From NCBI RefSeq assembly GCF_004010195.1, contig NC_057719.1:31587468-31651467 (forward strand): a stretch of DNA of 64,000 nucleotides. The letters are read 5' to 3'. Both the position numbers and the translations under genes were made by a program. This document shows, piece by piece, positions 4,801 to 60,480 of this stretch; position 1 is the first letter of the stretch, and each line of letters starts with the position of its first letter. The DNA is from Chiloscyllium plagiosum. Taxonomy: Eukaryota. Below the pieces are notes generated by a model. That model made no database searches and had not been told where the DNA came from. It worked only from the letters and a program-made list of their open reading frames with translations.

Positions 4801-5403
4801 CTGGCCAATCTTTTGCTTATTTTTCCTATTATTCCCTCCCGTACAATCCCTGTGAAGTGCCGAATGTTGTTTTCCTCATATGTTACTGTGACAAAAGCTT
4901 TATACAGCTAACGGTACAAATGAGTTCTGAGTGTTTTGTTCACACCTTCCAGTTGTGGTTTATGCAGCTTCTATTTGCAGAAGCTGCCTTAAACAGGGGA
5001 TGTTCATGTGACACTGACACATTTCAAACAGATATGGCACAAGACAAACGTTGCTGGTGAAAATATAATATATAATGTTAAAGCAATAACTGCAACTGAT
5101 CAATAATGTCAGCAACAAGTGCACATGGCAGCAATTACGGAGGCAGATGCTGCTGTATGATTTACCCACTGAAGTACTGCTGGTTTTTGTATCTGTAGGC
5201 TATTGCCCAGTTAGGTCTGATTCTGGTCTACAGTTTGAAATCAGCTCGAATTTTACGCAGAATGAGTAAATTGCTCCTCAAGCATTAAGAATTCAGAAAT
5301 TATCATGTGGGCGGACTCGTCAACTTAACAGGGAGTCAGCGGAATGGCATGACATCGTTCCCTGCTTCAAAGGGCAATCACGAGGTCCGTCTCTTGCACT
5401 TAC

Positions 5404-5490
5404 CTAACATTCTGATCTGGTTCCAGGTAAACACCGTGGCTGGAAGAGATCACAGCACTGCAAATACAAAACACCACGAACGAGCACCTC
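5404..5490 (-). CDS. TPP1: TPP1 coding exon 2 (signal peptide), 87 nt
   Basis: tctttgtttgcaacag acceptor and gtaagt donor; encodes (G)RCSFVVFCICSAVISSSHGVYLEPDQNV(S): hydrophobic signal plus EPDQ as in human SPEPDQRR; phase 2/2. Confidence 0.9.
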   Translation of the reverse strand, partial: EVLVRGVLYLQCCDLFQPRCLPGTRSEC

Positions 5491-5692
5491 CTGTTGCAAA
5501 CAAAGACAGAGATTTAGGAGAGGGAACGCGGGCACGCAACTCTAAAATACCGTGAATTCTCTTTCAAATCACGTTAATTCGATATCGTTATGGAAGTCAT
5601 CAGCGTTTCTCGCCCTAAATATCTAGATTCTCGAAGTTCGGTTAAGGATGGCGAAAACGAGTTGGTTGGTTCACTACAGACTTGAGACCTAC

Positions 5693-5703
5693 CCAGAGGC
5701 CAT
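5693..5703 (-). CDS. TPP1: TPP1 coding exon 1 (ATG GCC TCT GG | gtaggt)
   Basis: Short phase-2 first coding exon, as in human TPP1; joins exon 2 in frame to give MASGRCSFVVF... Confidence 0.8.
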
Positions 5704-5899
5704 TGATAAAGAACTGTCAGGGAGGACGCGACTCGTCGCTGCCCAAACTCACTCTGCAATGAATTCACTCAGTCTGCTGTGTAAGTACTTCCGGGACGTA
5801 CTGCACCACAACTCGAATATTACTGGTCATGGAGCTCTTCAATTCCAAAATAGTCCTGCAAAGATATATTTCCCAGCAAATGTTTTCAAAGCTAATTGT

Positions 5900-6630
5900 T
5901 TTGAATAAAGTACGAAAGATGGACGTTTGTTTCAAAGGGTCGAGGATGACTTGCTACCACTCCGAGGAGGATAAATACTTCAATCCTGGAGCCTCAGGCT
6001 CTGCCCAAGAGCCGGTGCAGGTTTGATGATGGAGATGAGTAGGACATTCTGGTGTGCTTTCTACTGCCTGCACGTGACCTCTGAGCATCACTGGGTGCAT
6101 GAAGTGTTTGGTGCCTTCACCAGTTTGTGCTTTCCAGGGCAAGCGATTCCTGTGTGTTGGTGGGATGTTGTATTTGCTTAGGTAGGCTTTCTGGATATCC
6201 TTATAGCATTTACTCTGCCCACCTTACCAAACGTGGAGCTCAGAGTAGAGTGTATTCAGGGAGTTTTGTGTCTGGCTTGTGAGCAGTGGGGCTCACCTAC
6301 CACATCTGGCTATGCTTGTCCCGTGCCTGGATACTAGCAGAATTGGTCTAGGAGAGAACACTTGTATTGGAACATGTATACTGCCAGTGGATTGGCAGCA
6401 TTTTATGAAGGGTTGGTGTAACCCTCCAGTGATTTGAGCTGTCTACACAGTCCACGTTTTATGATCTTGCATTGCAGAAGCATACTGAAGGTTGGGGACC
6501 ACAGCTGCTCAGTAGACTATGAGCTTAGTGTTGAGTTTGCAGTCTTGGGCTTCAACCACTCTGGTTACTCAGGCATCTGAAGGCTGCGCTGGAATTGATG
6601 TTGATTTCATTGTCAATGTTTACTCGCAGC
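5900..6630 (-). mobile_element. Decayed RTE-clade LINE 3' fragment
   Basis: Minus strand near 6195-6225 reads GGQSKCYKDI, resembling the RTE C-terminal GGQxKRYKD motif. Confidence 0.55.
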
Positions 6631-6760
6631 AAGAGAATTATTTCAATTTGTTTGCACAAGCCCACGTGATTTTTTTCTCTTGCCTTTGATATGGTCACTA
6701 ACCCCACCACCCTCCAACATCTTTCAGTTAATTATCTAGCTGAGTAAGATTATCTTTGAG

Positions 6761-6954
6761 GAGAAAGTGAGGTCTGCAGATGCTGGAGATCAGAGCTGAA
6801 AATGTGTTGCTGGAAAAGCGCAGCAGGTCAGGCAGCATCCATGGAACAGGAGAATCGACGTTCCTGAAGAAGGGCTTATGCCCAAAACGTCGATTCTCCT
6901 GTTCCCTGGATGCTGCCTGACCTGCTGCACTTTTCCAGCAACACATTTTCAGCT
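6761..6954 (+). mobile_element. Palindromic Penelope-derived mini-element with a hammerhead motif in the loop
   Basis: ~69-bp inverted repeat 6794-6862 / 6886-6954; loop CTGAAGA-A-GGGC-TTAT-GCCC-AAAA-CGTC; arms match the termini of the Penelope elements at 7525 and 57730. Confidence 0.8.
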
Positions 6955-7524
6955 AAGATTATCCTTGCTTGTTAACTTAAAGTGCTATGTCCTTTTCCTA
7001 ATATTTCTATTCATTCATGTGGGTATTTCTGGCTCAGTCAGTATTTATTGCCCATCTCTACTTGATCAACAGAAGGCTAGATTTTACTGTATAGTAAAAT
7101 GACTGCATAGTATCCAAGGTGGTGCACAATCACCAGCAAACATAATAGGTCTGACCTTCAGAGGAAGTGAAAGTCTTTGTGAAATAGCTGAAGGTGGTTA
7201 GGATATAGCACACCACCCGACAGAAATCCTGCAGTGATGTCCTGTTGCTGAAATGATTGACATTTAACCACCAGATCCATCTTCCTTTTTGGCTAGATAT
7301 AACTCCAATTGATTCCTAGCTTAATTAGGCAAAATTTGGACTTTATAGCTTGTACCAGATTACATTTTGATTTTGATCCGGTGCTGACAAACATTATCTT
7401 GGTTATGCTACTCCGTATTCTGAAGCCTTGTAATCCTGAATTCATTCTCTGCTCGGTCATTAAAATCAATGCATTGTTACCTGATCAGTGATACTCCTTT
7501 TAACATTGAATCCTTTGTCATAAA

Positions 7525-8840
7525 GAGTGGGTGCTGGAAAAGTACAGCTGGTCAGGGAGCATCTGAGGAGCAGAAGAGTTGATGTTTCTATTATAAGCTC
7601 TTAATCAGGAATGTGGAATGGAGGAAGAGGGCTGGGAATGCGATAGGTAGATGAAGGTGGGGGGTGATGGTGATAGGTCGGAGCAGATAGGTGGGAAGGA
7701 AGGTAGACAGCAGGACAGTTCAAGAGGGTGGTGCCGAGTTGGAGGGGTGGATCTGGGACACATTGATCCTGTGTGGTTGGAGGGTGCCAAGGCTGAAGAT
7801 GAGGCATTCTACCTCCAGATGTCAGGTGGCTAGAAATTGGTGGTGGAGGCTGGGGGTGAACTGTTCAACCACAGGGCAGTGGAGTTGTCTAGTGCGAGTG
7901 ACCCAGAGATTTCTCTGAAATGTTCCGCAAGTTGCCGTTCTGTCTCCACAATGTAGAGGAGACCATGGCGAGAGCAACAGACACTGTAGATGACGTATGT
8001 GGAGGTGCAGGAAAATCTGTCGGATGTGGAAGGAGGGGCCTTGGATGGAGGCATGGGCCAGTTTGACACCTCTTGTGGTGGTAAGGAAAGATGTTGGGAG
8101 TGGAGGGTGGGGTAGACCTAATAAGTGAGTCATGGAGGGAATGGTCTCGATGGAACCCAAATAGGGGTAGAGAAGGAAATATCTCTGTGGTGGTGGGGTC
8201 TGTTTGAAAAGGCAGGGGATGATGTGTTGTATCTGGAGGTTGGTGGGATGGAAGGTGAGGAGCTGGGGGGTGGGGTCTGTACTTCTTGCAATTGGAATGG
8301 TCAGGTTCAAGGCGGAGCGGTGGGAAGTGGAGGAGATGCACTAGAGGGCATCATTAACCATGTGGGAGGAGGTCACTGAAGGAGGTAGCCATCTGGGATG
8401 TTCTGTGGTGGAAATGGTCTTCCTGGCAGCTGATGTTGTGGAAACAGAGGAATTGGGAATAAGGGATATCATTTTTACAGGAGGCAGGGTGGAAGGAGGT
8501 GTAATCCAGGTAACTAGGAGTCAATGGGTTTGATTGTAGATGTCAGTGTTGAGTCGGTCACCAGAAATGGAGATGGAGAGGTACAGGAAGGGGAGGCAGG
8601 TGTCCGAGATGGTCCAGGTAAACTGGAGGTCATGGTGGAAGGTTTTGTGAAATTGATGAACTGTTCAACCTCTTTGAGGTGCTGCCAATACAGTCATCGA
8701 AGTAGCAGAGGAAAAAGTGGGGAATGGTGCCGGTGTAGCTGTGGAATATGGACTGTTGAGGCAGGCATAGCTGGGGCCCATGGCTACCTCTCTGGTCTGG
8801 AAGAAGTGAGGGGATTCGAAGGAGAAATCGTTGAGGGTTC
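7525..8840 (-). mobile_element. Penelope-like element (RT + GIY-YIG endonuclease), decayed
   Basis: ORF 7830-8069 FSCTSTYVIYSVCCSRHGLLYIVETERQLAEHFRE (GIY-YIG); ORF 8630-8842 YFDDCIG (RT); terminal repeat with degenerate hammerhead at ~7577-7610. Confidence 0.85.
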
Positions 8841-11800
8841 ATCCTTTGCTAATGAAATTTCCTACAAATACCTACCCTCTCATTGAAAAGAAAGCCATAA
8901 ATTAATTATTAATGTCTTTGCATTCCAACCCATTTTGGAATTTTGCCCGAACAGTTACAGCCCTTTGCTGTACATGGGTGAAGGGTCTTAAAGGTTTAGT
9001 ATGGAGGAGTGCCCAAAGCACCATTAGAATCTTGAATGAGTATGACATAACAGCTGGGTCTTCCTTATTGTGACTTCCACATCAATGAAACCTGTACTTA
9101 ATTGCCACTACAGAAACTACTCCTGTTCAATGCCTCTGAATTAGGAAGCACAGGTTCAAGTCTGTTCTGCTCCACAGGCATGACATAACATCTCTGAACT
9201 GATTGATTAAAAACTGTTTATAAGAGCCTCTTGTGTTAAACCAGTGAGTTTTCCTCTACTACACTAAAACAAACAGGTTCCCAGAGCCCTAAAGATGATT
9301 TGATTTGACTACATACATCATTCCTGTCCACCCGTAATATGCTTTGTATCTCTTTATAATGAAAGCAGTGCTTTAGAATACATGACAATTTCCATTCGTA
9401 CGCCATGCTTATGAACTGTATTCTGCATCTTTATTCTCTGCCCAACCAGAGAACAGGTGAGTTATTCACCATGCATTATTACCTCAGACAACACAATATC
9501 ACATGACTAAATCATTAATACAGTAGGTATACTTTGCTCTACATTTATTTACATAAATACAAAGATATAGGAAATCTATTAAAAACAGTATTTTTAAGAA
9601 CAATCTGGATTAATAGGTCCATTAGAGAAAGTTGACTTTTTAAACATGTGCTTGAAATGTAACAGTCCCCTCTGACCAATCAGAAGAATTTAAGTTTTCT
9701 AAATTGTTTGAGATTAAATGATAGCTTTGGAGGTATGGTCAAAACTTAAAACTAGTAGTTGGAATCATCACAGTTATGAAACAATTTTCAAGCAGTGCCA
9801 ATTTTTCTGCAGTCATTAAGCGATTAAATGTCAAGTCTTCGTGTCATGGTTGAGATTGGAATAAGGGCCTGCAATAGTTGACATTTCTTCTGCACATTTC
9901 TCTCAGACCAGTCATCAGCTCATATGGATGTTATAAAGTAAATTAATATTTCAAGTTAATTAATACTTCAAAAAAGCTGTCAGAAGAAAACATTTAATTT
10001 GTGATTAGGAACCTGGTACATGTAGTTAAGAATTTCTTGTCATCTATAGTTACTCAAAATAAACCCTTAAGTCAACACTGCTTGAAACTAAATAAAACTA
10101 AAACAGATGAATGCATCGTGATATGACTATTTGATCATGCATTCCTGTTATCAGCTCTCTGAAGTAATATTAGTTTTTCATTTATAACCAGAGGTGGAAA
10201 AAGATCTAGTTCTGTTTCTATTTCTAATCAGCAATTCTATTCAACAGATATTTTCTCTGCTCCCTTTTGAAGGTATCAAATAATCCCAGACCAGCATGCA
10301 TATTTTGAACATGTTATCAAGTTAACTAAGTTGCACATTTTTATATATGGACTCTGAACTGAGCAAGCTTGATTAGACAAGTGAGTTCAGAGTGCATAAT
10401 ACGAAGGAAACGTATTTATTTGACAGATGAAGTTTATATACACTAATTTAAAGTCTAGCTCTAAAATTTTAAGTCTTAATTTGTGTATTTTAATATGGAG
10501 CTTAGCAAAACCTAAATATAATACCTTTGAAAACTAATTTGAACTGCATTATTGTGCATTTGGATCATCAGAGTTCTTTAATAGCCAGAGGAAATATATA
10601 TAACTAGCCTTGAGAAACTTATGGCATTCTTTATTCACAATGTTAAAAAAAAATCAAAACCTTCTCCGTTTCCTATATCTCTCTGTGCTACTGGCAAGGT
10701 TAGACTCAATCACCTTTAATTCCACTCAGGAAATGATCATGGGAAGGCACAGCAGCAATCATCTTGTGGGCATTCTCATAGCATTTATTTGGTGCTGCTC
10801 TGAAAGTAACATGAAATAAACTGAGTGAGTGGAAAAGTGCTTATCTCGTGCTCTACCATTGTGAAACAGTATATTCAGGACTTATGTCATACTGGGCACG
10901 CCATGTTAATGGAAGTTATGCAGAGTGCAGCCTGTTCAAATTTCTCAGCCAGCAAATCATTTCAATAATCACCTCAAGTGCTTCCGTTTGATTTGCAGGA
11001 AATAGTAAGAAATTTATTAGCAGCCATAGGGCTCAGTTAACGTCCATCTTGAAGTGTTCAGCTTATTACAGCTTGTATGAAGGAACATTAGGTAAAAATA
11101 TGAAAACATAGTTTAATGACTTATTTTCCCCTGAAGAATGAATACAGAACTTCTAAGAAAATTGTTAGTCCATCTTCAATTCAACTAGTTTACTGTGGTA
11201 CTTGTTGCTTCCTTTGGAAATAGTTTCAGACTGCACTATGAAGAAATGCAAATTGTTTCTGTATTATACTTTGTGCTCTTAATTTACCCAAAAAAGAAAA
11301 TCCCTCACAGAATGGCCCAGTGGATGTGACATATATCGGCAGGCAACTTCTTCCACATAGGGCATTGACTGCATCCTCCACAAGCATCCATAACACACAA
11401 TTCCTCCATAAGCTGAATTCTTGCAGAATCATTGGGTAAAGAACAGGAGTGAATGGCCAGGCTAATTTCCCCCTTTTATAACCAAAGAATATTAAGATAA
11501 GGCTGTTACTGAGATAATTGCTTTCAGAATCCTGCTCAAAATGTTTCTCTCCCTTTATTAAATGTGAAAAAAGGGTCAAGCTGTGAAACCGCAGAAACCA
11601 CTCATCATATACTGGCTAGAGGCCTCCATTTTCTCAGACAGCATGAAAAATCCAAGCACATGTTTAGCACATTTAAAGAATGCTCAGGCAATAATCAAAA
11701 AACCATCATTGTAGACAACAGGAATTAAACATCGGCCAAGGAACTGTCAAGATTAAATTGAAATCAATACCATCTCATTTACAATACAAACTCATTACAA

Positions 11801-24828: not shown

Positions 24829-27440
24829 GTTAAAATCACAACACCAGGTTAATAGTCCAACAGGTTTATTTGGAATCACTAGTTTTTGAAGCACCATTTC
24901 TTCATCGGGTGGTTATGGAGCAGAATCATAACACAGACTTTACAACACCAGGATTGCAGTGACATGGAATGTAATATTAAACAAATTTAGCTTAAGTCTT
25001 TTATCCTTTAGAATGACCATGTTAGTTTTGGTTTCTTCATATTTAAATTCCAGAACTTTTAAAAAGTTACATTGTCAAGATATCTTTTAACAATAGGTGC
25101 CACCTCAGCTCAGATAATGCATTGAAAGTGTGAAGTGTGAAGTCTGTCTGTGTCCCAATATTAGGTCAGACTGATTCTATTTCTAAAATGGGAGTTACAG
25201 AAGCTTACATGGATTTATGCAGTTTTTGAGCAAAATAAAAATGTAATTCTGCAAATACAAATTAACCCCACAAACTTATATGTTTGTGTGTAGGGGAGAC
25301 TGAGTGTGTGTGCATACATGTGGGAGTTTGTGTGGGGGTGTGTGTCTGTGACAGTGTGTATCTATGTGAAAGTGTAATAGGATACAAGTCTGTGAGAGGG
25401 TGCATGTATGGGTGAGTGTGTGGGAGTGTATGTGTGAGCAAATGAGAGAGAGCTTGTGTATGAGAAAGAGTCTGCATGAGTGTGTGGGTCTCCCTGCAGT
25501 GTGACATGAACCCAAGGTCCCAGTTGAGGTCATCCCCATGAGTAGCAAACTTGGCAGTCAGTTTCTGCTTGGCCACTTTGTAGTGTTGCTTGTTCCGAAG
25601 ACCGCCTTGGAGGATGGTCACCCAAAGGTCCAAGGCTGAATGTCCCGGACCGCTGAAGTATTCCCTGACTGGGAGGGAACACTCCTGACTGGTGTTCGTT
25701 CATCTGTTGCCGTAGCCTCTGCTCGGTCTTGCCAATGTATCATGCCTCAGGGCATCCTTGCCTGCCGCGTATGAGATAGACAACATTGGACAAGTCACAT
25801 GAGTACCTGCCACGTACATGGTGGTATCTGTGGCAAAACTCTGACACATCCTCCAGCGTCTGCCATGACAGGGTTGTATGGTGTTGGCCTGAAGGCCAGG
25901 CAGTTTGCTGCAAACAATGATCTGCTTAAGGTTTGGTGGTTGTTTAAAGGTGAGAGGGAGGTGTCAGGTAGGTTTTGGCAAGGTGCTCATCCTCAATGTG
26001 CTGTAGGCCACAAAGAACATGGAGTAGTTTTTCGGCTCCTGGGAAGTACTGGCCAACGAAGGGTACCTTATTGGTAGCAGCTCGTGACTGTCTCCTGAGG
26101 AGGTCATTACGGTTTCTTGCTGTGGCACTTCAAACTGGTGGTCGATGAGTTAAGCATCGTATCCCGTTCTTATGAGAGCATTCTTGAGTATTTCCAAGTG
26201 TCTATCACGTACCTCCTCATCTGAAAAGATCCTTTGTATGCATAGGGCTTGTCCATAGGGGATAGCTGTTTTAATATGTTTCGGGTGGGAACTACATAAG
26301 TGTAGCATAGTGAGGTTATCCGGGTTTGCAGTACAATGAGGTGACCATTCTTGATGAAGATGCATGTGTCCAAGAATGAGACAGATACTAAAGAGTAGTC
26401 CACGGTGAGTTTGATAGTTGGATGAAACTCATTGATATCACTGTGTAGCTGTTTCAGTGACTCCTCACCATAGGTCTAGAGGAAGAAAATGTTGTCCATA
26501 TATCTGGTGTATAGTGTTGGTTTGAGATCCTGTGCAGAAAAGAAGTCTTGTTCAAATCTGTGCGTGAAAATGTTGGCATATTGGGGTGCAAATGTAGTCC
26601 CCATGGCTGTTCCATGTGTCTGGATGAAGAACTGGTTGTCAAAGGTGAAAATGTTGTAGTCGAGGATGAAGCGGATGAGTTGATATTGAGTACTGAGGCT
26701 GTTGCCGCAATGCCATCGTTGTGGGGAATGCTGGTGTACTTGGATGTACCATTCAGCGGTCCAGGACATTCAGCCTCAGATCTTTGGGTGACCATCCTCC
26801 AAGGCGGACTTCGGGATACGCAACAATGCAAAGAGGCTGAGCAGAGGCTGACAGCCAATTTTGGTACCTATGGTGATGGTCTCAATTGGGACCTTGGGTT
26901 CATGGAACACTACAGGCGACCCCACTACACTATACACGCTCTCAGACACACACACACTCCTCCAGACCCTTTCGCATGCACAAAGTCTCTTTCTTATGCT
27001 CGCTCACACACACAACTCCACACTCACCCTCTCTCAGACTTGTACTCCATTACACCCAACACAGACACATACACACACACATTGTCTCCCCTGCGTGTGC
27101 ACGCGCACACACATACACAATTTGTACTTGCAGAATTACTTTTTATTTCGCTCAAAAACTACATAAATCCATGTAAGATTCTGTAACCTCCACTTTAGAA
27201 ATAGAATCAGTCTGACCTAACATTGGGACACAGACAGACTTTAACTTCACACCTCCAATGCATTATCTGAACTAAGGTGACACCTATTGTTAAAAGCTAT
27301 CTTGAAAATGTAACTTTAAAAAAGTTCTGGAATTTACATATGAAGGAACTGAAACTAATATGATCATTCTAAAGGATGAAAGACTTAAGCTAAATTTGTT
27401 TAATATTTCATTCCATGACACTGCAATCCTGGTGCTATAA
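24829..27440 (-). mobile_element. Penelope-like element with a ~700-bp inverted terminal duplication
   Basis: ORF 26476-26769 QTHGTAMG...YTRYMDNIF (PLE RT); 24946-25657 is mirrored at 26752-27440; (CA)n-rich 3' region; degenerate hammerhead at 24878-24912. Confidence 0.88.
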
Positions 27441-29713: not shown

Positions 29714-31843
29714 CTATTATCCAAAATATGAAAATCATTAGGGCAGCAGATTGAGAATATAGTAAAAACACAAACAAACCATCATCCCACCCTCACAAAT
29801 GCACATTATTAATATAACTAGGGATATTAAAAAGATTTAAAGGTCTTAAACATTCTGCATGTGAGCTGGATTGTATCTCACATGACATCCAAGACGTTAT
29901 CAGTCATTATAGGGTCACAATAAAGATGAAGCTAGGTTAGTCTATGTTCAAAAAGGATGACAAATAGGCATATAGTGGAACTGTAAATGAACCTAAGTTG
30001 ATATACAGATAATAAACAATTAATGTATTCAGAAGAAAATAAATCCTGCCTGACTAAAATTCTTCATTGTTTTGACAAATGAATGTCTTAAGTGATAAGC
30101 TTTACTGTTGTTCATGAATTTTAAATGTCATTTAACAAAATTCCACATTAAAGGATATTAGTTCAACTAAAAAACATTAGACTCTAGACAAAATAGAGTT
30201 TTTAGGACTTGTATTGGGGTAGAAGAAATACTCAGAAGGGTGTCACAGAAATAGGTTTTTGAACAATAATTGTTTTCTAACTCAGTTAAATTATTTGACT
30301 GAGAAACCCAATGCAAATTGGTCAAATTTACCTACCAAACTAGAAAGAGTGTTGAAATGGAAGGAGACAGATCATAAATTACAGAATGCTCCAGACAAAA
30401 TGCTGATAGACCCAAGAGAGCTTTTTAGTATCTGGTTACTCAAAACAACTAACCAATGAAAAATAATATTCAGCAAAGCCAACAGAATGTTACATTCTAC
30501 TGTCTAAATAGTGGAACAGGAAGTCATAGTCATTGAATATGAGGAGTACAAAAGGTTATTAAATTTAAAGGTTAAAATGAACTAACTCAAACAAATGAGC
30601 ACAATTGATACTGAAAAGATCAAGTAGTCATCTTATTTCTTTTTATGCCAATAGATTTCTTGTTGATCAATGTCCCACAACTGCAGATCAATATACATGT
30701 GGTCAGCAGGAATTACTGAACAATCAGGATCAGAAACATAGTTGACATTTCCTTCTGTAATAGTGGCATGGACCACCACTGAAGTCAGTTAACTCAGCAG
30801 AAAAAAGGTCACTCCTGAACACTAAGTCTACACAGCTCAGTCACTCTTTGCTGATTTCAGGGCATTCACCAAACAATTGCATTGGAAAGACCCTCAAGTT
30901 GTAGGAAAGCACAGAGATGTGCCTTCAAATTGTCCACACTTTCCATGCTAAGATGCTCATTATAAATTGAGCCACTAAACAATGCATAAAAAGCATGAGG
31001 CAATGCCTGGTCACATTACTTTTGATGGATACATTGTAAAATTGCCATCATACTTCACTATATTTCTAATCTTCCAAAATTAATTGTCTTTAGAATCATC
31101 CACCTGTAATATAACATCTGACAATCTCCAGTGTTGACGATTTCCCTCCCAAATGTTTTCCGACTCTTGTTTCTCCGACTTCAATTTTGCCACAATTTTT
31201 TTAAAAAAAGGCCTCAGAAATTTATTAGATGGAGAGGCCTTCTGTTATAAAAATTACAGTGAATGCCAAATTTGGATGTATAATCCCTGAATGTGAGATT
31301 TCCCATTTTATGGGCAGGGCAAGAGAGACTGGATCATGGGGATGGAATCTAATTCCCATATTCATGGTTCACAGAAGCAAACGAAGAGAAAGTGCAGCTG
31401 CCAAAGGCTGATTATATTTTTGCAAGTGGAATGTGCAAGACATGACTTGTGAATTTTAGACCTGGTAGGTGAAGGTCTAAAGCTGCTGGACTACTTTGGG
31501 GAGGTTCTGGGCAAGGTCAGGCTCCATTTGGAAAAGATAAAGTGCCCTCTGACGATGTTAAAAGCAGATATGAACTTGTATAAAATGTACACAAACTCAT
31601 TCGAAAGATCAAGAAAGCTGTCAAGCTGTCAAGGGATTTAAAACTCGTGCCCTTTAAATACTTGACAACACAAAAAGCTATGTTAAGTGCTTTTAAAAAA
31701 TGCTGACTATTTCACTGTCTGTTGACACATGCCTATGGATTATCATAATAAAATTTGTCTGACATGATAAATTTCAAAACTTTGCACTATCACAGCAGAG
31801 TGCTTGTCACCTGATAGTTTGATTGACAATTATAAACACTTTG

Positions 31844-32045
31844 AGTTAAAAAAATCACACAACACCAGGTTATAGTCCAACAGGTTTAACTGGAAGCACA
31901 CTAGCTTTCACCACTCACAACCACCTGCTGAAGGAGCAGCGCTCCGAAAGCTAGTGTGCTTCCAATTAACCCTGTTGGGCTATAACCTGGTGTTGTGTGA
32001 TTTTTAACTTTGTACACCCCAGTCCAACACCGGCATCTCCAAATC
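31844..32045 (+). mobile_element. Palindromic Penelope-derived mini-element with a hammerhead motif
   Basis: ~60-bp inverted arms 31850-31909 / 31946-32005; motif CAC-CTGCTGA-A-GGAGC-AGC-GCTCC-GAAA-GC-TA-GTG at 31922-31956; arms match the end of the Penelope at 24829. Confidence 0.85.
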
Positions 32046-32999
32046 AAAACAGTTTGAGGATGGACATAAATTCCAATGTTTGTTTTATAAAAGATGGAAG
32101 AATATTAAATGCAGTTAATAGATTTTAACTATTGATTGTAGTTTTATTTTTCCAATAGTTAATTCATTGATAGGACACTTAGCTTTATTTAATATCAGCA
32201 TGGTATGTGTAAGGACATAGGGTGGTGGAGAATAGATTGGCACTAAGTTGGAACAGGATCTGTAATAGGCTATAGGGTATGTAGAGAGGTATGGATATTA
32301 TGAACAACTGTGGGTGTGGGTGAGGGCATGAGGAGCATAAGTGAAGCACAAGTTAGTGAGGGGTTGAGACGGGAAAAAAAACTGTTTGCTTTATTGTTCT
32401 TTTCCTTAGACTCAACAAAGCACTGGCCCTGCTCAGGCTAAATATGCACTGTCTCGAAGGTTACCCACCATGTCTACCATTTTATTTTCATCTGCTGCCT
32501 AGAACTAAATTCCAATTTACTGGAGCACTTATTCCCCAGAACATGTTTGCAGAATTAGGAAATGGAGAGGCTCTGTTCTGAACCCAGGAATAAAAATTTA
32601 GGTCATACTCTCCAGTTGCACGCACAAAAATCCTATTGCCGCTCAACTCATTCGTAAGTGTTACTCTTTTATATTTTGGACACATACAAGAATCCCTGTT
32701 ACCATCTTGCAGATTATCAGGCTGCTTTTCTTGCTAGACTGGAGAAGATGGTGAAGTTAATCATCAGGTTTTAAAAGAATTGGAAATAACTGAAATTAAA
32801 TGATTTTTACATTAAATATTTTGTCACCTAGAAAATAAAACTTCTGCAAATTATAAGAGATACCCCAATGAATAGTTAGAACGGACTAATCATGTATTGT
32901 AAATGTGGATAAGTAAGGAGTAATTTATGTCAACTAATTATCTGAATTCAAGGCATATTCAAGTCAAATGTATATTTAAACAAAGGAAGTATACTGAAT

Positions 33000-37985: not shown

Positions 37986-38164
37986 AAACATCATTGCAGT
38001 TTGGCTCAGCTGAAGGATGAGTTGTCAATTCCAGATCCACTCCAGTACTTGTGTTCATAATTAGTGGCAAACTGAGGGGAAAGGTTAACCTCCAAAATAG
38101 ATTAACTTTTTATTTCTTTGCACTGCTGTGTTTGCTTAATCACAAGCACTAATCTTCAAAAGTA

Positions 38165-38400
38165 AAAACCGAAAAGAACTGCAGATGCTATAAATCAGAA
38201 ACAAAAACAGAAGTTGCTGGAAAAGCTCAGCAGGTCTGGCAGCATTTATGAAGAGAAATCAAAGTTAATGTTCCAGGTTTCGTGACCTACCTCCCAACTG
38301 ACGAAACTGCAGTTCTGAGGAAGGGTCACCATACCCAAAATATTAATTTTATTTCTCTTCACAGATGCTGCCAGACCTGCTAAGCTTTTCCAGAACCTTC
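38165..38400 (+). mobile_element. Palindromic Penelope-derived mini-element with a hammerhead motif
   Basis: Inverted arms ~38216-38272 / 38339-38393; CTGAGGA-A-GGGT...ACCC-AAAA at 38315-38340. Confidence 0.75.
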
Positions 38401-38551
38401 AAAAGTACATTGGTTATGAAATGTTTTGGAACTAGCAAACATTAAAACAACAATATAACATTGCTTTAGAAGTGAAACAACTACAAATTCAACTTCCATA
38501 CGATACCCTGGAATAAAGAAAAGATACCCCACAGCCAGTATGCTTAAAGCA

Positions 38552-40039: not shown

Positions 40040-40607
40040 CTGAAAATGTGTTTTCTATTACACGTCCATTCACAGATGCAACAGCCCCATTCAAACCACA
40101 AGTTCTTTTTTGGGGAGTTCGAAGATGGTGATTTTCAGGGATATGAAGATGGTCACCGTGAAGTTTAGCTTTCATTTTTTGGAACATTTTAGCAGGACTC
40201 TCACAGACTATTTGCTTGACCAACGTAGATTCAATAGGATTTAAATCAGATTTGACATGACTCTGGCTTACTTTCACACTTGTTGGATCAGAATCTATTA
40301 TATCACTGATTTCAGGAGGAATTACATGAAACGTTCCCTCATTTTCCAGGGCTGTGGATTGAAGTTGATGAATTACTTGAGGATTTTTCTTAGCTTTTAA
40401 TGAGATAATAGGGAATGTGTCTGGAGGTTTCAGATTGGTATTCTCCCTTTGGATACTTGTTGAAATACATGGGAGTTTATGTAAGTCTTTTAATGGAGTA
40501 CCGTTTGGAATCTGATGAAGAGGTACTGATTTCCAGGTTGTTTTCTGTTCTCTGTCCATTTCAGTGTTGTTGAAAATGTTCTTCTTGGATGGAGTAACAG
40601 ACACCAT
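40040..40607 (-). CDS. MIS18BP1: MIS18BP1 (Mis18-binding protein 1/KNL2) first coding exon, 568 nt coding
   Basis: tttttttcag acceptor 1 nt before the ATG; MVSVTPSKK...IPNGTPLKDLHK...ESPAKMFQKMKAK matches human MIATPLKH...IPSGTLTPVKDLVK...ESPGKIFLRMKEK; gtatga donor. Confidence 0.92.
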
Positions 40608-41038: not shown

Positions 41039-42186
41039 TTGGAGAGAATCCTGAGGGACAGGATGTACATGTATTTGGAAAGGCAAGCACTAATTAGGGA
41101 AAGTCAATATGGCTTTGTGTGTGGGAAATCATGTCTCACAAACTTGGAGTTTTTTGAAGTAGTAACAAAGAGAATTGATGAGGTCAGAGCGGCAGATGTG
41201 ATATGGATTTCAGTAAGGCGTTCGACAAGGTTCCCAATGGGAGACTGGTTAGCAAGGTTAGATCTCTCAGAATACAGGGAGAACTAGCCATTTGGATACA
41301 GAACTGGCTCAAAGGTAGAGGACAGAGGTTGGTGGTGGAGGGTTGTTTTTCAGACTGAAGGCCTGTGACCAGTGGAGTGCCACAAGGATTGGTGCTGGGT
41401 CCTCTACTTTTTGTCATTTACATAAATGATTTGGATGTGAGCATAAGAGGTCCTAGGGAGTGTTGCTGAAAAAAGAGACCTTGGAGTGCAGGTTCATAAG
41501 TCCTTGAAAGTGGAGTCGCAGGTAGATAGGATAGTGAAGAAGGCGTTTGGTATGCTTTTTTTTTATTAGTCAGAGTATTGAGTACAGTAATTGGGAGGTC
41601 ATGTTGCGGCTGTGCAGGACATTGGTTAGGCCACTGTTGGAATATTGCGTGCAATTCTGGTCTCCTTCCTATCGGAAAGATGTTGTGAAACTTGAAAGGG
41701 TCCAGAAAGGATCTACAAGGATGTTGCCAGGGTTGGAGGATTTGACCTATAGGGAGAGGCTGAACAGGCTGAGGCTGTTTTCTCTGGAGCGTCAGAGGTT
41801 GAGGGATGACCTTTTAGAGGTTTACAAAATCATGAGGGGCATGGATAGGATAAATAGACAAAGTTTTTTCCCTGGAGTCAGGGAGTCCAGAACTAGAGGG
41901 CATAGGTTTAGGGTGAGAGAGGAAAGATTTAAAGAGATCTAAGGGGCAACTTTTTCACACAGAGAGTGGTATGTGTATGGAATGAGCTACCAGAGGAAGT
42001 GGTGAAGGCTGGTACAATTGCAATATTTAAAAGGCATTTGGATGGGTATATGAATAGGAAGGGTTTGGAGGGATATGGGCTGGGTGCTGGCAGGTGGGCC
42101 TAGATTGGGTTGGGATATCTGGTCGGCATGGACGGGTTGGACCAAAGGGTCTGTTTCTATGCTGTACAACTCTATGACTCTATGAT
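41039..42186 (+). mobile_element. Young CR1/HER1-type LINE 3' fragment with internal deletion at ~41450
   Basis: Nearly identical to 1-1177; ORFs 41039-41287 and 41547-41942; ctctatgactctatga tail. Confidence 0.95.
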
Positions 42187-46239: not shown

Positions 46240-46735
46240 TTGTAGCTTAGGTGCCTGTTGTCGTGGTTGTGGGTATGATTGCCGAGCTGGGAAGTTGATT
46301 TGCAGACATTTCGTCCCCTGTTTAGGTGATATCTTCAGTGCTTTGGAACCTCCTGTGTCTTCTGGAATTTATTTGGTTCCGTTTCTGTTGCTGTGTTTGT
46401 TGTGGCCACTATATTGAGTCTAGGTCAACGTGCTTGTCCGTGGCTGAGTGCCATGCTTTTAGAAATTCTCTGGCTGTCCTCTGTTTAACTGGTCCTCAGC
46501 CACAGGTCTCCATCAACAAGCACTTTGACCTAGACCCAATATACCAGCCACTATAACAAACAACCAGAACTGGCAACTGGAAACAGCGGAAACAGAACCA
46601 AATAAATTCCAGAAGACACAGTACAGCAGTGCTTCACAGAAGACTCCAAAGCACTGAAGACATCACTTAGACAAGGGATGAAACATCTGTAAATATACCT
46701 CCCAGCTCGGTCAACATACCCACAACCACTATCCC
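46240..46735. mobile_element. Penelope 3' ends arranged as an inverted pair, each with a hammerhead motif
   Basis: 46264-46388 mirrors 46586-46728; + strand ends INKHFDLDPIYQPL*; - strand QRTAREFLKAWH (GIY-YIG C-terminus); cores at 46332-46338(-) and 46654-46660(+). Confidence 0.8.
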
Positions 46736-48200: not shown

Positions 48201-49524
48201 AACTATCAAAACGGTCTTAATTAACAATAATCACTTGTGCCTAAAAAGTAGATCTTGAAATTATTTTGAATTTTTCAACCTTAAATCTGGTATTATATTA
48301 AATTTAAATGGTACTGAAAACAAAATTTGAAAACCTTGTTACATATTCAATATTAACTCATTATGCAGTGCATGAATTAACACTCAAGGAATTAAAACAG
48401 GGCCACAGAAGGTCATTTCTCAAAGATGAAAATGTAATCAATGCCTGACAAGTAGATTATAATGGAATTCATAAGGATCTTTAAGTCTACTCTCCATTTA
48501 ATTGAGATTTTTGCTATTTTGTGTATATGCAAGAAATTTGTTTTGGGAAGTGGTAGGTGAAACCAGAACCTAAGAATCCTAGGTATTTGTAAAAAGCTCA
48601 AACAGAATTTTTTTTATGCTGCAGTTGTTGATTTGGAACACAAAAATAAACCACACACAAAAAGAAATAAGGTAGCCAAGCTAAACAATTAATTGCACAA
48701 TTTATTGGTTCTTACTGATTCACTAAAAAGAGACAGCATCTGAATGTGAAGATGACAGATTTGTGATCTTGATTTATAGATGCAAATTCACAAGTTTGAG
48801 GACATTCAGAAGTTTGCTTGACAACAAGCATCATAAGTCATTAATGAATAACTATGTGTTCTAATATATTAATAAAGGCTGCAGTTCCTTGACATAATTA
48901 CAAATAATAAAGACCAGTCAACCAAACTCAATTCATCCATGTGAAAAAATAATAAAATTATCAAAACACGCAATTGTTTAAAAGATTCCAGAACTTTTGT
49001 CTCTGCTACTTTGTCTGCACTATCTCCAGCATTCAAGATACAGTCTGTCCAGAATACGAGCAGGCTTGATCAATCTGGACCTGTACTATTATTATGTAGT
49101 TTAATATTGTGTTGCCTTGCAGCTTGCTTTTCTGCCTTACTTTAAATGGTGTGTCTAAAATATCTAGACCCAAGGCTTTTCTCCAAATTAGACAGCAGTA
49201 CGTCCTAGTGTAGAATGGAAGCAATCATTTAGCCTCTCTAGCCTGTTCCACATTCAATGAAGTCATGATGGATGTGCGATTCAACAATGTAACCACCTGT
49301 GTCCCATATTCCTTAGTATCACTGCTAACAAAAAAAAAGTTTAAAATTAATGAAAGATCTAACAAGAATTATTATTTGTAAAAGAGACAAGCTCAAGGGG
49401 TAAGGCTACTTCAGCACAACCTCCTGGATCCCTCTACCTACCTCGCTGGTAGTCACACCCTTCAGTTCCTGACCAAATGTCAGGTACAAAAGTTAAAAAT
49501 CACAACACCAGGTTTATTTAGAAG

Positions 49525-49560
49525 CACTAACTTTCGAAGCACAACTCCTTCATCAGGTGG
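49525..49560 (-). ncRNA. Minimal type I hammerhead ribozyme motif
   Basis: CCAC-CUGAUGA-A-GGAG-UUGUG-CUUC-GAAA-GU-UA-GUG: both core boxes intact, stem I CAC/GUG. Confidence 0.65.
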
Positions 49561-49576
49561 TTATCATCAGTTACAA

Positions 49577-49612
49577 CCACCTGAAGAAGGAGCAGCGCCC
49601 CGAAAGCTAGTG
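49577..49612 (+). ncRNA. Minimal type I hammerhead ribozyme motif
   Basis: CCAC-CUGAAGA-A-GGAGC-AGC-GCCCC-GAAA-GC-UA-GUG: core intact, palindromic AGCU stem III, one stem II mismatch. Confidence 0.7.
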
Positions 49613-50834
49613 TTTCTAAATAAACCTGGACTATAACCTGGTGTTGTGTACAACCATGAAAACTGTGAGCCAAACAAAAAACACCTCTTCCCCATTGCAT
49701 TAAATTCCATGAACTATATAATCACTTAGGCTGTGTCCTACTCTGAATGTGATCTCTCCTTCACGACCAGCTAAAACTTATTGGTCACCTTGTTTTATAA
49801 CTTATGCCAATTTGCTGGCCCCTCCATTGTTTCCGGGTTTTACCAATTAGAAAATACACTGCTCTTTTATTTTCCGGTCTTAAATGGATGATTTTACATT
49901 CATTTAACATGCAAAGTCAACTGTCACAGTTTTGCCAGTTTACTTAAATCAACATCCTTTTTGTGAATTGCACGTAATGCTACCTATTTGTGCATCATTG
50001 GCAAATTAGCATATGTTGCTTCCTACATCACAAAATAAATATATTGAATAACTCAGGCTATAATACAGACTCTTGCAGGAGATCATTAGCCAATTAGAGC
50101 ATTATTCCCTCTCTGTTTCTGATGACTTGACCAAATCAGTACTCCCTCTCCAGTGCAACTGTCAACTTCTTGAACAATTATGTTTCAGCCAGCTTCGTAA
50201 CCATTTCTAATATGATCTCATCCTCTATAACTTGAGGCTTATTCAAGAGGTTTCACATGCAATGCAGGTAGAAACCTTTTGGAAGAAAAGGTGCATCATC
50301 ACCTTGGATTTATTTCATAATTATCATGGTTTCTCATTTCTTAAGAAAATTAGTTAAGCAGCATTGCTTGAACTCACGTTTCCTGCATTTAATAATAGTC
50401 AGGTTTCAAATGTCAGATATAAACTGATTTTGTCACTTCTTGATTATGGTAATTTATTGGCCAACTTTCACTCTGCTGGGATCTCCTCCATATCCACCAT
50501 CTGTCACATGATGATTGCCAGTACTAAACAAATAACTTTGCCCTGTTAAGATTTAGCCATCTTGCCTTTATTAAGATCATTGAGATTACCTAGCTACGTT
50601 TTAGAGTAGGAATGATGTTCATATCTTCCCTTTTGAGTAATGGGAGAAACTAAACATTAAGAATATTTGTTAAATTGCATCCTTCAGGTTCAAGCCAATT
50701 AACATTCAAATATATGTCACATCATTTCAAATTGTGGCCATGGTCACAGTACCAAATCAAATTATTACAGTTTCATGGAGCCTCATATTATCTATTTAAT
50801 ATGCTTTCTTGTGAACCAGTGAACACTTGCAACT

Positions 50835-57729: not shown

Positions 57730-58215
57730 CCAGGTGAAAGTGGGTACTGCAGATGCTGGAGATTAGAGTTAAGATTAGAATGGTTCTGGAAAAGCAGAGC
57801 AGGTCAGGCAGCATCCGAGGAGCAGGAAAATTGACGTTTTGGGCAAAAGCCCTTCATCAGGAATGAGGAAGGTTGGAATGGAGTAAGGTGGGGTGGGGTG
57901 GGAGATGAGGAAACTGGTGAAGTCCATATTGATCCCATGGGGTTGAAGGGTCCTGAGGCGGAAAATGAGGCATTCTTTCTCCAAGCGTCGGATGCTAAGG
58001 ATAGTGGCGATGGAGGCGATCCAGGACCTGGATGTCCTCAGCAGAGTGGGAGTTGAAATTTTTGGCCACAGGGCGATTGGGTTGATTGGTACGCATGTCC
58101 CGGAGATGTTCTCTGAAGCGCTCTGCGAGTAGGTGTCCAGTCTCCCCAGTGTAAACGAGACCGCATCGGGAGCAACGGATACAATAAATGATACGTGTGG
58201 AAGTGCAAATATAGG
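57730..58215 (-). mobile_element. Penelope 3' fragment (GIY-YIG endonuclease + terminal repeat with hammerhead motif)
   Basis: ORF 57995-58219 IIYCIRCSRCGLVYTGETGHLLAERFREH; ORF 57775-57984 LIFRLRTLQPHGIN; CTGATGA-A-GGGC-TTTT-GCCC-AAAA-CGTC at 57833-57860. Confidence 0.9.
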
Positions 58216-59149
58216 ACATTCAGGTCATCAAATCTGCTACACCATTCAATTCAATCATAGCAGTGACAAACCTCAGCTCAACTCAGCTGTATATTCTCCA
58301 TAACCCTTAAATGCCTGACTGATTAAAAATGTCCATCTCAGCCTTCAATATAACCCAACATCAACAGGCTTCTGTGGTAAAGAATTCCACAGATTTATAA
58401 CCCTCAAGAAATTCCTTCCCATCTACATCTTAAATGTAAAACCCTTTATTCTCAGATTGTGTCCTCTGGTCCTAGACTGTCCCGCAAAGAGAAACAAACC
58501 TTTCCATATCTCCCTATCAAGTCCTTGAAGAATCTTGTACATTTCCAGAAGGTCACATTTTTAATAAAGGCAAACAATCCATTTGCTTTCTCTTTAACCC
58601 AATGCACTTGAGATTAGCTTTTTGGGATTCATGCACGAGAACACCAAATTCCTCCACTGCAGCTTTTTGTGGTAGTTCCCAAATTAAATATTACTCAACT
58701 CCTCCATTCACACTGTCACGATGCATCACTTCACATTTTTCCATGTCATATTCCATGTCAAGTTTCTGTCCGCTCACTCAACTTGTCTAATTCACTCTGT
58801 AACTGTTACCCTCCTCTTTGTGTCAACTTCAAACTTGGCAGTAATTAATTAATATCATCCAAACATATAGTAAATAACTCTGGACCCAGTACTTATCCCT
58901 GCAGTCCTCCAATAGCCTCCTGTATCCCAACAGGAGTTCATTAAAGAAAACATAACACCTACCCCTGCTTTTAATTCAATTGGCTCCTTTCTGAACTATT
59001 AACATGCTTCTGAGAGTGTAATTCAACATGATACCCCGGCTGTGGTGAAATTAACGCTTTCTTTTATTATCCTATGACCGTACGAGCTACACGTCAACAA
59101 AATATTGTTCAAGGATCCATGCTGAGGCACAGTTAATGCCAGTCTTTCA

Positions 59150-60480
59150 TTAAGTAGATAAACAGGGGGCTGAATGAACACAGCAAGCCAGGCAGCATCA
59201 GGAGGTGGAGAAGTCAACAGTTGGATATAACCCTTCTTCGGGAATGGAAGCGGCGATAAGGGGAGCTGCAGATAAAGAGGGGGTAGAGATGGGAAGGGTA
59301 ATGGTCGGGTGAGGAGTGAAATGGTGAGGTAGTAATAGGAATATGGGTGGTGGGTACAACAGGTTGATTGATGGGAGGGTATCTGGTTGGTATGTAGAAG
59401 GAAGGGCCGGTAGGAGGAATAGAAGGCATGAAGCAGGGCTGAAAAAGGAGTTAGGGGATGGGAAGGACGATTATTTGAAATTGGAGAATTCAACATTAAG
59501 TCCTCCAGGCTGTAAGCTGCCCAGGCATAAGATAAGGTGTTGCTCCTCCAATTTGCAGTCTGATTCGCTGTGGCATGGGAGGAAGCCGTAGTTGGACATG
59601 TCAGAGAGGGAGTGGGAAGGTGAATTGAATGGGCGGTGACCAGGTGGTCAGGCTGGCCCTTACAGTCCCAGCTGAGATGCTTGGCAAAACATTCCCTTAG
59701 TTTATGTTTAGTTTCACCTTTTTAGAGAGGACCATATCGGGAACTCTCCAAAACCACACCCTACCTCCTACTTGATCACAACCCCACCACGATCCATCAA
59801 GCCACTGTCACCCACATTGTTCGTGTCCTCATTGCCTCTAGTGATCTCCTCTCCACTGCCTCAAACTTCAATCCCACAGGTGCGCACTGCCCGTTTCTAC
59901 TTACTCTCCAAGCCCAACTACCCAGCCAACCCATGGCCTTTGCATGGTCCTGCCCCACCGAACTCATTTCTTCCTACCTCGACTCCATTCTCTCCCCCTT
60001 GGTCTAGGCACTTCCACCTACATTTGGGAAACCAACCAAATTCTCCAACTTTTCAGAAACTTCCAGTTCCCCAGTCCCAAGCACTTCATCTTCACTATGG
60101 ACGTGCAGTCCTTACACACATTCATTCCCCACAATGATGGCCTGTTGACCCTCAGTTTCTTGCTGTCCAACAGACCCATCCAGTCCCCTTCCACCAATAC
60201 CCTCCTCTGCCTCACCAAATTAGTCCTCACCATCAATAATTTTTCCTTCATTTCTTCCCATTTCCTCCAAATCCAGGGGCACTCGCACAGGTCCCAGCTA
60301 CACCTGCCTCTTTGTTGGCTACGTCAAAGTCAGTCTTCAATACATACAGAGATACCGTTCCCTAATTCTTCCCTTATTACATGGATGACTGCATTGGTGC
60401 TGCATCCTGCATCCAGGCTGAACTGAAGCAGTTCATCGAATTTGCCAACAACTTCCACCCGACCCTTAACTTCACTTGGT
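59150..60480. mobile_element. Penelope element: minus-strand 3' end (59150-59745) abutting a plus-strand RT segment (59745-60480)
   Basis: ORF 59944-60426 FTMDVQSLHTFIPH...LVLTINNFSF; YMDDCIG at ~60378; terminal repeat at 59150-59245. Confidence 0.8.

Follow-up and report, generated by a model that had tools for sequence, protein, structure and literature searches.

Inverted termini in Penelope-like elements

Insertions of EN+ Penelope-like elements (PLEs) are described by Arkhipova et al. 2013 (PMC3846280) and Craig et al. 2021 (PMC8557442) as typically carrying an inverted, 5′-truncated copy and a "tail" on one side. In these accounts, the Penelope-like terminal repeats (pLTRs) of a GIY-YIG-encoding parent lie head to head across a palindromic junction, and the insertion is bordered by a short target-site duplication (TSD). 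How inverted ends form in PLEs is stated in PMC8557442 to be unresolved, and PMC3846280 proposes self-priming on an antisense template as the source of head-to-head junctions. Experimental data on a related system come from PAc, a Poseidon element of Anolis (Frangieh et al. 2024, PMC11167929), which is reported to cut and extend both target strands and to start reverse transcription internally, at two sites by which the tail is defined. The PAc ribozyme is described in that source as requiring its protein, as being dispensable for insertion in vitro, and as uncut in RNA-seq. The minimal hammerheads of PLEs are characterized in PMC4209133 by a type I core, an unpaired base between positions 9 and 10.1, a G10.1-C11.1 pair, and a loop-less palindromic stem III. 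The published monomers are inactive and the dimers weak (PMC4209133), with dimer cleavage also covered in a review (PMC6765202). Opposite-strand hammerhead pairs, 100 to 700 bp apart, were attributed to truncated PLEs as early as 2014 (PMC4209133). Finally, non-LTR retrozymes (Cervera and De la Pena 2020, PMC7229834; Li et al., bioRxiv 10.64898/2026.07.22.740005) are small, noncoding, hammerhead-bearing, and pLTR-related, and are described in these sources as head-to-tail tandems with at least two same-strand ribozymes and a circular RNA.

The locus discussed here is a palindrome at positions 49484-49653 of the window, the 64,000-nucleotide stretch of Chiloscyllium plagiosum DNA that was analyzed. 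It is like the insertions of PMC3846280 and PMC8557442 in its head-to-head 5′-truncated copy, its tail at one end, its palindromic junction, and its GIY-YIG parent, but its copies are only about 80 nt each, whereas the inverted pLTRs described in those sources adjoin longer elements, and its candidate TSD of 6 bp is weak. Its hammerheads have the anatomy given in PMC4209133, with a stem I of 3 bp and a stem II of 5 bp that are both shorter than the schistosome values reported there; unlike the opposite-strand pairs of that source, its two cores are only 24 nt apart, and both have decayed. The initial annotation had likened the palindrome to a retrozyme or viroid-like architecture. This likeness covers its small size, noncoding nature, hammerheads, and pLTR relationship, but not the arrangement, which is a single inverted pair with one motif per strand and no same-strand tandem. 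Taken as an analogy, PAc would be the best mechanistic model for the locus, although PAc belongs to the Poseidon clade and the parent found in the window has a CX4CxxC linker of the Neptune/Nematis type. Earlier work had described both inverted pLTR insertions and pairs of ribozymes on opposite strands, and the locus is classed with the truncated inverted-pLTR insertions of EN+ PLEs.

Anatomy of the palindrome

Sequence comparison bears out the earlier view that the inverted repeat is made up of two inverted Penelope-like terminal repeats. The exact arms, at 49508-49562 and 49575-49629, are 55 nt long and 85% complementary, and an outer pair at 49501-49514 and 49635-49648 forms 14 perfect base pairs. 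Between the exact arms lie 12 nt, not the spacer of about 16 nt first described, and the spacer shrinks to 8 nt (49565-49572) if the arms are aligned to the long copy of the family (the 31917 arm). No ORF of at least 100 aa overlaps the palindrome, in agreement with the original statement that it contains no coding sequence.

The two arms are unequal. The left arm (49484-49564, minus strand) is a 5′-truncated pLTR end whose 3′ end faces left. In alignment to the long copy it lacks 15 nt near 49512, and it has kept part of the tail out to 49484 (about 49484-49500), since a blastn search with the 31917-32046 arm covers 49562-49484. It contains an AATAAA hexamer and the minus-strand hammerhead. 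The right arm (49573-49649, plus strand) is likewise a 5′-truncated pLTR end, with its 3′ end facing right; it lacks 3 nt near 49626 and has no tail. Both arms start 8 nt 5′ of C3 of the hammerhead core. When compared with the long copy, the left arm matches at 8 of 8 positions from -8 to -1 and the right arm at 7 of 8, and both match at 0 of 4 positions from -12 to -9. The spacer at 49565-49572 is non-family sequence, and 49564-49570 repeats 49550-49556, which is the antisense of the CUGAUGA box; a 7-nt match in the spacer has a chance of 0.024 in simulation. Judged from these letters, it is possible that the repeat is a templated insertion, as a template jump or a repair patch would leave.

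The candidate 6-bp TSD is formed by 49484-49489 and 49648-49653, both read on the plus strand. Its left copy also matches the family tail and is for this reason weak, and a match this good arises in 310 of 19726 boundary pairs chosen at random. Aligned over 64 positions, the two arms disagree at 9; of these changes, 7 are transitions and none is compensated. One letter that is in the minority within the family is common to both arms (49520 and 49617), which fits a single template and would also fit later arm-to-arm conversion.

Family identity and coding parent

The terminal sequence of the arms recurs at 31850-32005 and at 24832-24917, and the arms are 78 to 83% like 24837-24916. This last stretch belongs to a decayed coding parent (24832-26756, minus strand) that retains remnants, broken by stops and frameshifts, of the RT/thumb, a CX4CxxC-type linker, and GIY-YIG, as well as a 3′ UTR and the pLTR itself at 24832-24917. 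The parent aligns by tblastn to residues 189 to 641 of the shark protein P0010 over 25499-26756 of the window (E = 4.7e-109). P0010 and its relatives carry RVT_1, the sole Pfam domain scored, and a GIY-YIG-type motif with two cysteines can be read in their printed sequences. The CX4CxxC linker is whole in the relative P0007 and decayed in the window copy, and Pfam searches of the decayed parent fragments gave a sub-threshold RVT_1 match and otherwise chance matches only. Going by the definition of a CX2-5CxxC linker between RT and EN in PMC8557442, the linker and motifs point to the Neptune/Nematis type, within which Neptune and Nematis are not separated here.

The same terminus therefore ends an element with an RT together with a GIY-YIG domain at the C terminus, the linker is present, and the copy at 49484-49653 is inverted, 5′-truncated, and tailed on one side, all of which are characteristic of an EN+ PLE pLTR. 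The initial annotation had invoked a Penelope RT, and this part of it is supported: the arms are Penelope-like termini with minimal hammerheads, an RT/GIY-YIG parent is present in the window, and the insertion is almost certainly the work of a Penelope-type RT/endonuclease. Head to head with the parent lies an inverted 690-bp copy (26752-27440, plus strand), which has the same architecture at a larger scale. The outer end of this 24832-27440 inversion stops at a TATA-like box, not at the pLTR end, and has no clear TSD. A second PLE family is represented at 7532-8900 and 57732-60476 by fragments that include coding remnants as well as pLTR ends.

Other palindromes in the window

Besides the one at 49484-49653, four short or mid-sized pLTR palindromes lie within the 64 kb. 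A second, younger palindrome of the same family (31834-32058) has a left arm that stops at GAAA, a right arm that starts at -9, a full tail on the right only, and a 12-bp TSD. Two further pLTR palindromes, at 6745-6967 and 38151-38407, belong to two other families and have 14-bp TSDs and one-sided tails. In the latter (38210), both arms end about 5 nt before the ribozyme core and are separated by a 9-nt spacer, a layout like that of 49484-49653, and the short arms at 31850 and 6789 end at the GAAA foot of stem II. A palindrome of 467 bp at 46263-46729 comes from a further family and carries hammerhead motifs close to both outer ends (46338 on the minus strand and 46654 on the plus strand); its arms extend well upstream of the core, so it has no -8 pattern. 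The TSD copies match at 13 of 14 positions at 6789, 13 of 14 at 38210, and 11 of 12 at 31850, against a random background that reaches at least 11 matches in 6 of 983. No significant TSD was found for the inverted structures at 46263 and 24832-27440 (7 of 8 matches, reached by chance in 322 of 983). Among the other inverted structures, 5 were tested for a TSD, and 3 of them have one of 12 to 14 bp.

These sister palindromes bear on whether one event or two produced the locus. Two adjacent solo pLTR stumps may have been inserted separately, or one stump may later have been duplicated and inverted by DNA repair. PLE endonucleases favor their own pLTR or AT-rich DNA, and PAc is reported to prefer a cut near its own ORF-pLTR junction (PMC11167929); the weak 6-bp TSD and the resemblance of the spacer to a repair-type templated patch would also suit this history. 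However, each of the three sister palindromes is bounded by a single TSD of 12 to 14 bp, both arms of 49484-49653 have the same starting point in the family sequence and one minority letter in common, and the geometry is always head to head. An origin in two events is accordingly unlikely. A single event is suggested for 49484-49653, where the TSD is weak, by the three sister palindromes in which it is strong.

Hammerhead motifs and predicted folding

Both motifs quoted in the initial annotation are confirmed, each with CUGANGA and GAAA boxes, a UA cleavage site, and a 3-bp stem I (CAC/GUG). The plus-strand minimal type I hammerhead (49578-49612) has a predicted cut at 49609/49610 and has kept the stem III palindrome AGCU, and the one on the minus strand (49525-49559) has a predicted cut at 49528/49527 and a stem III palindrome of AGUU, not AGCU. 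A UH site, an extra base before stem II, and G10.1-C11.1 are present on both strands. The description of these ribozymes as intact holds for the core boxes but not for the stems, as stem II is damaged in both and the dimer palindrome of the minus strand is broken. Plus-strand stem II has an A-C mismatch and a predicted dG of -1.0 kcal/mol, compared with -5.8 kcal/mol in the younger 31917 copy, and minus-strand stem II has two G-U/U-G pairs and a predicted dG of -1.5 kcal/mol. Read pile-ups show that pairing letters are present in the family at 49599, 49530, 49537, 49543, and 49544, that is, at the damaged stem positions, and it follows that the 49484-49653 copy has decayed. In Rfam, no hammerhead family was matched, whether at the gathering threshold or at E ≤ 10, the only matches being to generic miRNA-hairpin models and far below cut-offs, so the hammerhead call is based on motif anatomy compared with PMC4209133.

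The full palindrome folds as one long hairpin of -79.3 kcal/mol on the plus strand and -95.6 kcal/mol on the minus strand, with a folding z of about -14 on both strands and 0 of 200 shuffles equally stable. Fold prediction thus upholds the proposal that RNA of either strand holds one ribozyme inside a long hairpin, where it is paired to its own antisense copy. Within the full element, predicted stem II pair probabilities are below 1e-6 on both strands, and imposing the ribozyme fold is predicted to cost 41.3 (plus) or 50.5 (minus) kcal/mol. For isolated arms, the predicted stem II probability is 0.00 to 0.03 on the plus strand and about 0.46 on the minus strand, compared with 1.0 for the 31917 copy, and predicted dimer folds amount to -9.3 (plus) and -2.6 (minus) versus -18.9 kcal/mol for the 31917 copy. 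The stable stem II and palindromic stem III needed for dimers are not found together on either strand at 49484-49653. Ribozyme activity is unexpected at this locus, where the hammerheads are predicted by these models to be masked by the hairpin. The hammerheads are passengers of the pLTR.

Junctions of related copies

The initial annotation proposed a non-autonomous, ribozyme-only palindromic element, which would be transcribed, would cleave itself or circularize, and would be copied as a unit by a PLE RT. A mobile unit of this kind would be recognized by dispersed copies with the same internal junction. For this comparison, three DNA contig sets (X1, X10, and X18) and one RNA run (X21) were aligned to the locus at 80% likeness. 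In X1, the summed contig depth is 51,917 to 141,539 on the arms (49599 and 49537), 233 at 49568, and 5 to 6 on the unique flanks, which puts the spacer at 0.16 to 0.45% of arm depth, and the same central dip is present in X10 (476) and X18 (72). Contig depth is no copy number, and these values are read only as meaning that the arms are highly repeated and the center is not. Most contigs leave the arm into parent-like sequence (110 at 49562 and 91 at 49573), with an agreement of 0.40 to 0.46. The joints total 31, and the 15 listed have 1 to 4 contigs each per run. Junction inserts from other loci number 66, and the 12 listed are all different. The same is true inside the window, where the spacer of the 31850 palindrome differs from that of 49484-49653 and the two short palindromes of the family therefore have no junction in common. 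Among the 24 of 8612 pieces listed, no record bridges the junction by a 31-letter rule, the locus itself included. In the listed rows, then, centers differ and center depth is low, and dispersed copies with the same internal junction were not seen. An exact 27-nt motif of the family had 0 matches in metagenome, viral, and prokaryote collections.

There are observations that would favor a mobile unit. The spacer in X1, at a depth of 233, still exceeds the flanks about 40-fold, and three records from other loci cross the center with 11 to 12 differences and gaps (among the 24 of 8612 pieces listed). Look-alike centers thus exist, and a subfamily with a near-fixed center remains compatible with the contig data. 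Short pLTR palindromes recur in the window, three have clear TSDs, and the boxes are kept in both cores of 49484-49653. It has also been reported that pLTRs can mobilize other DNA in cis (PMC3846280), and tandem retrozymes have been proposed to derive from pLTRs (bioRxiv 10.64898/2026.07.22.740005). Against these stand the differing centers and the fact that each strand has a single ribozyme, which is paired along its whole length with its antisense and has a damaged stem II. Circularization needs two same-strand cuts, and with one cut site per strand no unit would be released to circularize.

Transcripts of the family

Abundant linear and circular RNA would be expected of a non-LTR retrozyme. 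The RNA data come from X21, a single-cell poly(A) RNA run of which about 2% was read; such data provide a weak test, in which circles and small RNA would go unseen. A total of 787 reads align, all of them partly, of which 2 are at least 99% alike and 1 is 95 to 99% alike. In this one run, 0 reads fall on the unique flanks and there is no pile-up of read starts or ends. RNA that matches the locus itself is therefore almost absent from this run, at 3 of 787 reads at least 95% alike. The X21 reads derive from other family copies, are ribozyme-sense, and run uncut across the cleavage site. Poly(A) begins soon after this site, in 293 reads at 49613 and in 204 reads at its mirror, 49509. An A(A/T)TAAA hexamer, 9 to 11 nt past the cut, precedes the poly(A) start by about 14 nt. 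Some family pLTR ends appear to act as a poly(A) signal at one or few expressed loci, a read agreement of 0.88 to 0.96 suggesting that such loci are few.

An independent non-autonomous, ribozyme-only element is unsupported by junctions that differ and by locus RNA that is almost absent in this weak test, and we consider it highly unlikely. Unique junctions and the lack of a locus transcript, which the initial annotation itself had named as evidence against its proposal, are largely what was found.

Age of the insertion and host gene neighborhood

Unique-flank contigs of two related species (organisms B and C) enter the element from both sides. Four flank records do so, one of them by more than 31 letters, and the insertion site appears to be common to the window genome and the two related species. 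Among the 15 of 31 joints listed there is no clean skip of 49484-49650, and no empty site was seen. An assembly artefact was considered and rejected, because the arms are 14% divergent and the element is reached from the flanks by contigs of three species. Flank records differ from the window at 20 of 779 positions in organism B and at 31 of 794 in organism C. Set beside the divergence between the arms, and if the arms were once identical, this would make the insertion very roughly four times older than the A-C split, an estimate from a small sample dominated by transitions.

Unassigned older repeats flank the element at 49385-49477 and at about 49690-49770 and contig depth over them is elevated in each of the three species. 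One contig of organism B (side 26) has a joint from 49444 to 49687 that skips the intervening sequence, with both ends inside other repeats. This joint might be an empty or deleted allele; no second copy of the 49444/49687 flank repeats was found within the window.

The nearest host gene features belong to MIS18BP1. The exon at 40041-40607 shares 97% identity with Chiloscyllium punctatum MIS18BP1, in keeping with a bamboo- or epaulette-type carpet shark as the host, and further exons continue on the minus strand down to 12018 (12018-40607), which places the palindrome 8.9 kb upstream of the start codon. Residues 509 to 1359 (approximately) of P0046 are unmatched in the window, a 500-N gap is present near 16.9-17.4 kb, and the assembly may lack or misjoin part of MIS18BP1. 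No host-promoter-like CpG island is evident above 40.6 kb, where CpG-rich stretches sit in repeats. A CpG-rich stretch at 5200-6000 (observed/expected 0.84 to 1.02) may be the promoter of a neighboring gene. Elsewhere there are many LINE fragments with an RVT_1 match, for example at 17-1171 and 41039-42179, which we take to be CR1-like. ARAGORN found no tRNA in the window.

The proximity to MIS18BP1 raises the idea that the hairpin has been exapted as a regulatory RNA or DNA structure for this gene, be it an miRNA/siRNA precursor or an editing substrate. The more stable fold of -95.6 kcal/mol is on the minus strand, which is also the MIS18BP1 strand, and the site appears to be common to three species. 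However, the arms show no compensatory change, both carry deletions, and X21, as one poly(A) run and a weak test, contains no RNA from the locus. An miRNA precursor in particular was rejected on the ground that the Rfam miRNA-hairpin matches are far below cut-offs. Exaptation is barely credible in the light of these data, and the locus seems instead to have decayed neutrally.

Proposed origin

The locus is very probably a dead insertion by-product of an autonomous Neptune-type PLE, in which the pLTR end was pasted twice, head to head. Under this scheme, the GIY-YIG endonuclease would have cut the target, and the RT would have extended both sides of the break with copies of no more than the final 75 to 80 nt of the pLTR. 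Both broken ends would have been primed on the pLTR, producing one copy with part of the tail and another without. The two short copies would then have been joined at their truncated 5′ ends via the 8-nt patch, leaving a palindrome whose arms meet head to head and of which one outer end has a partial tail. That both cut strands were primed is suggested by analogy with the in vitro work on PAc, another PLE. The locus is compatible both with such two-ended priming and with the self-priming of PMC3846280, and it cannot tell them apart.

More tentatively, it is conceivable that the RT starts at tail sites inside the 5′ leader of its own mRNA and runs off a TATA-driven RNA start 7 to 12 nt before the hammerhead; with both cut strands primed, the copies would meet head to head. 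We regard this run-off as a plausible suggestion that could easily prove wrong. Arm starts relative to C3 fall at -8 in both arms of 49484-49653 and at -9 in the long 31917 arm, and 10 of the 10 listed other-locus junctions that reach the arm start follow the family for only 1 to 6 more bases, although listed junction contigs must touch both arms, which biases ascertainment toward short extensions. In the long copy, a TATA-like hexamer lies 28 nt upstream of the arm start. This spacing fits a Pol II start. Two observations speak against run-off, namely that there is no RNA-end pile-up at -8 and that 152 X21 reads continue upstream through -8. Among related elements, a putative TATA box is reported for a rotifer pLTR (PMC3846280) and a TATA-less internal promoter for Drosophila Penelope (PMC2377424). 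The run-off model was not found in searches of the open-licence literature.

Implications

The locus itself is ordinary: the repeat family is very abundant, and this is one of its old remnants. The locus does carry a caution for the annotation of shark DNA, where paired opposite-strand hammerheads are insertion scars and not viroid-like RNAs. Short, TSD-bounded palindromes with clustered breakpoints could be used to test both run-off and two-ended priming by counting alone.
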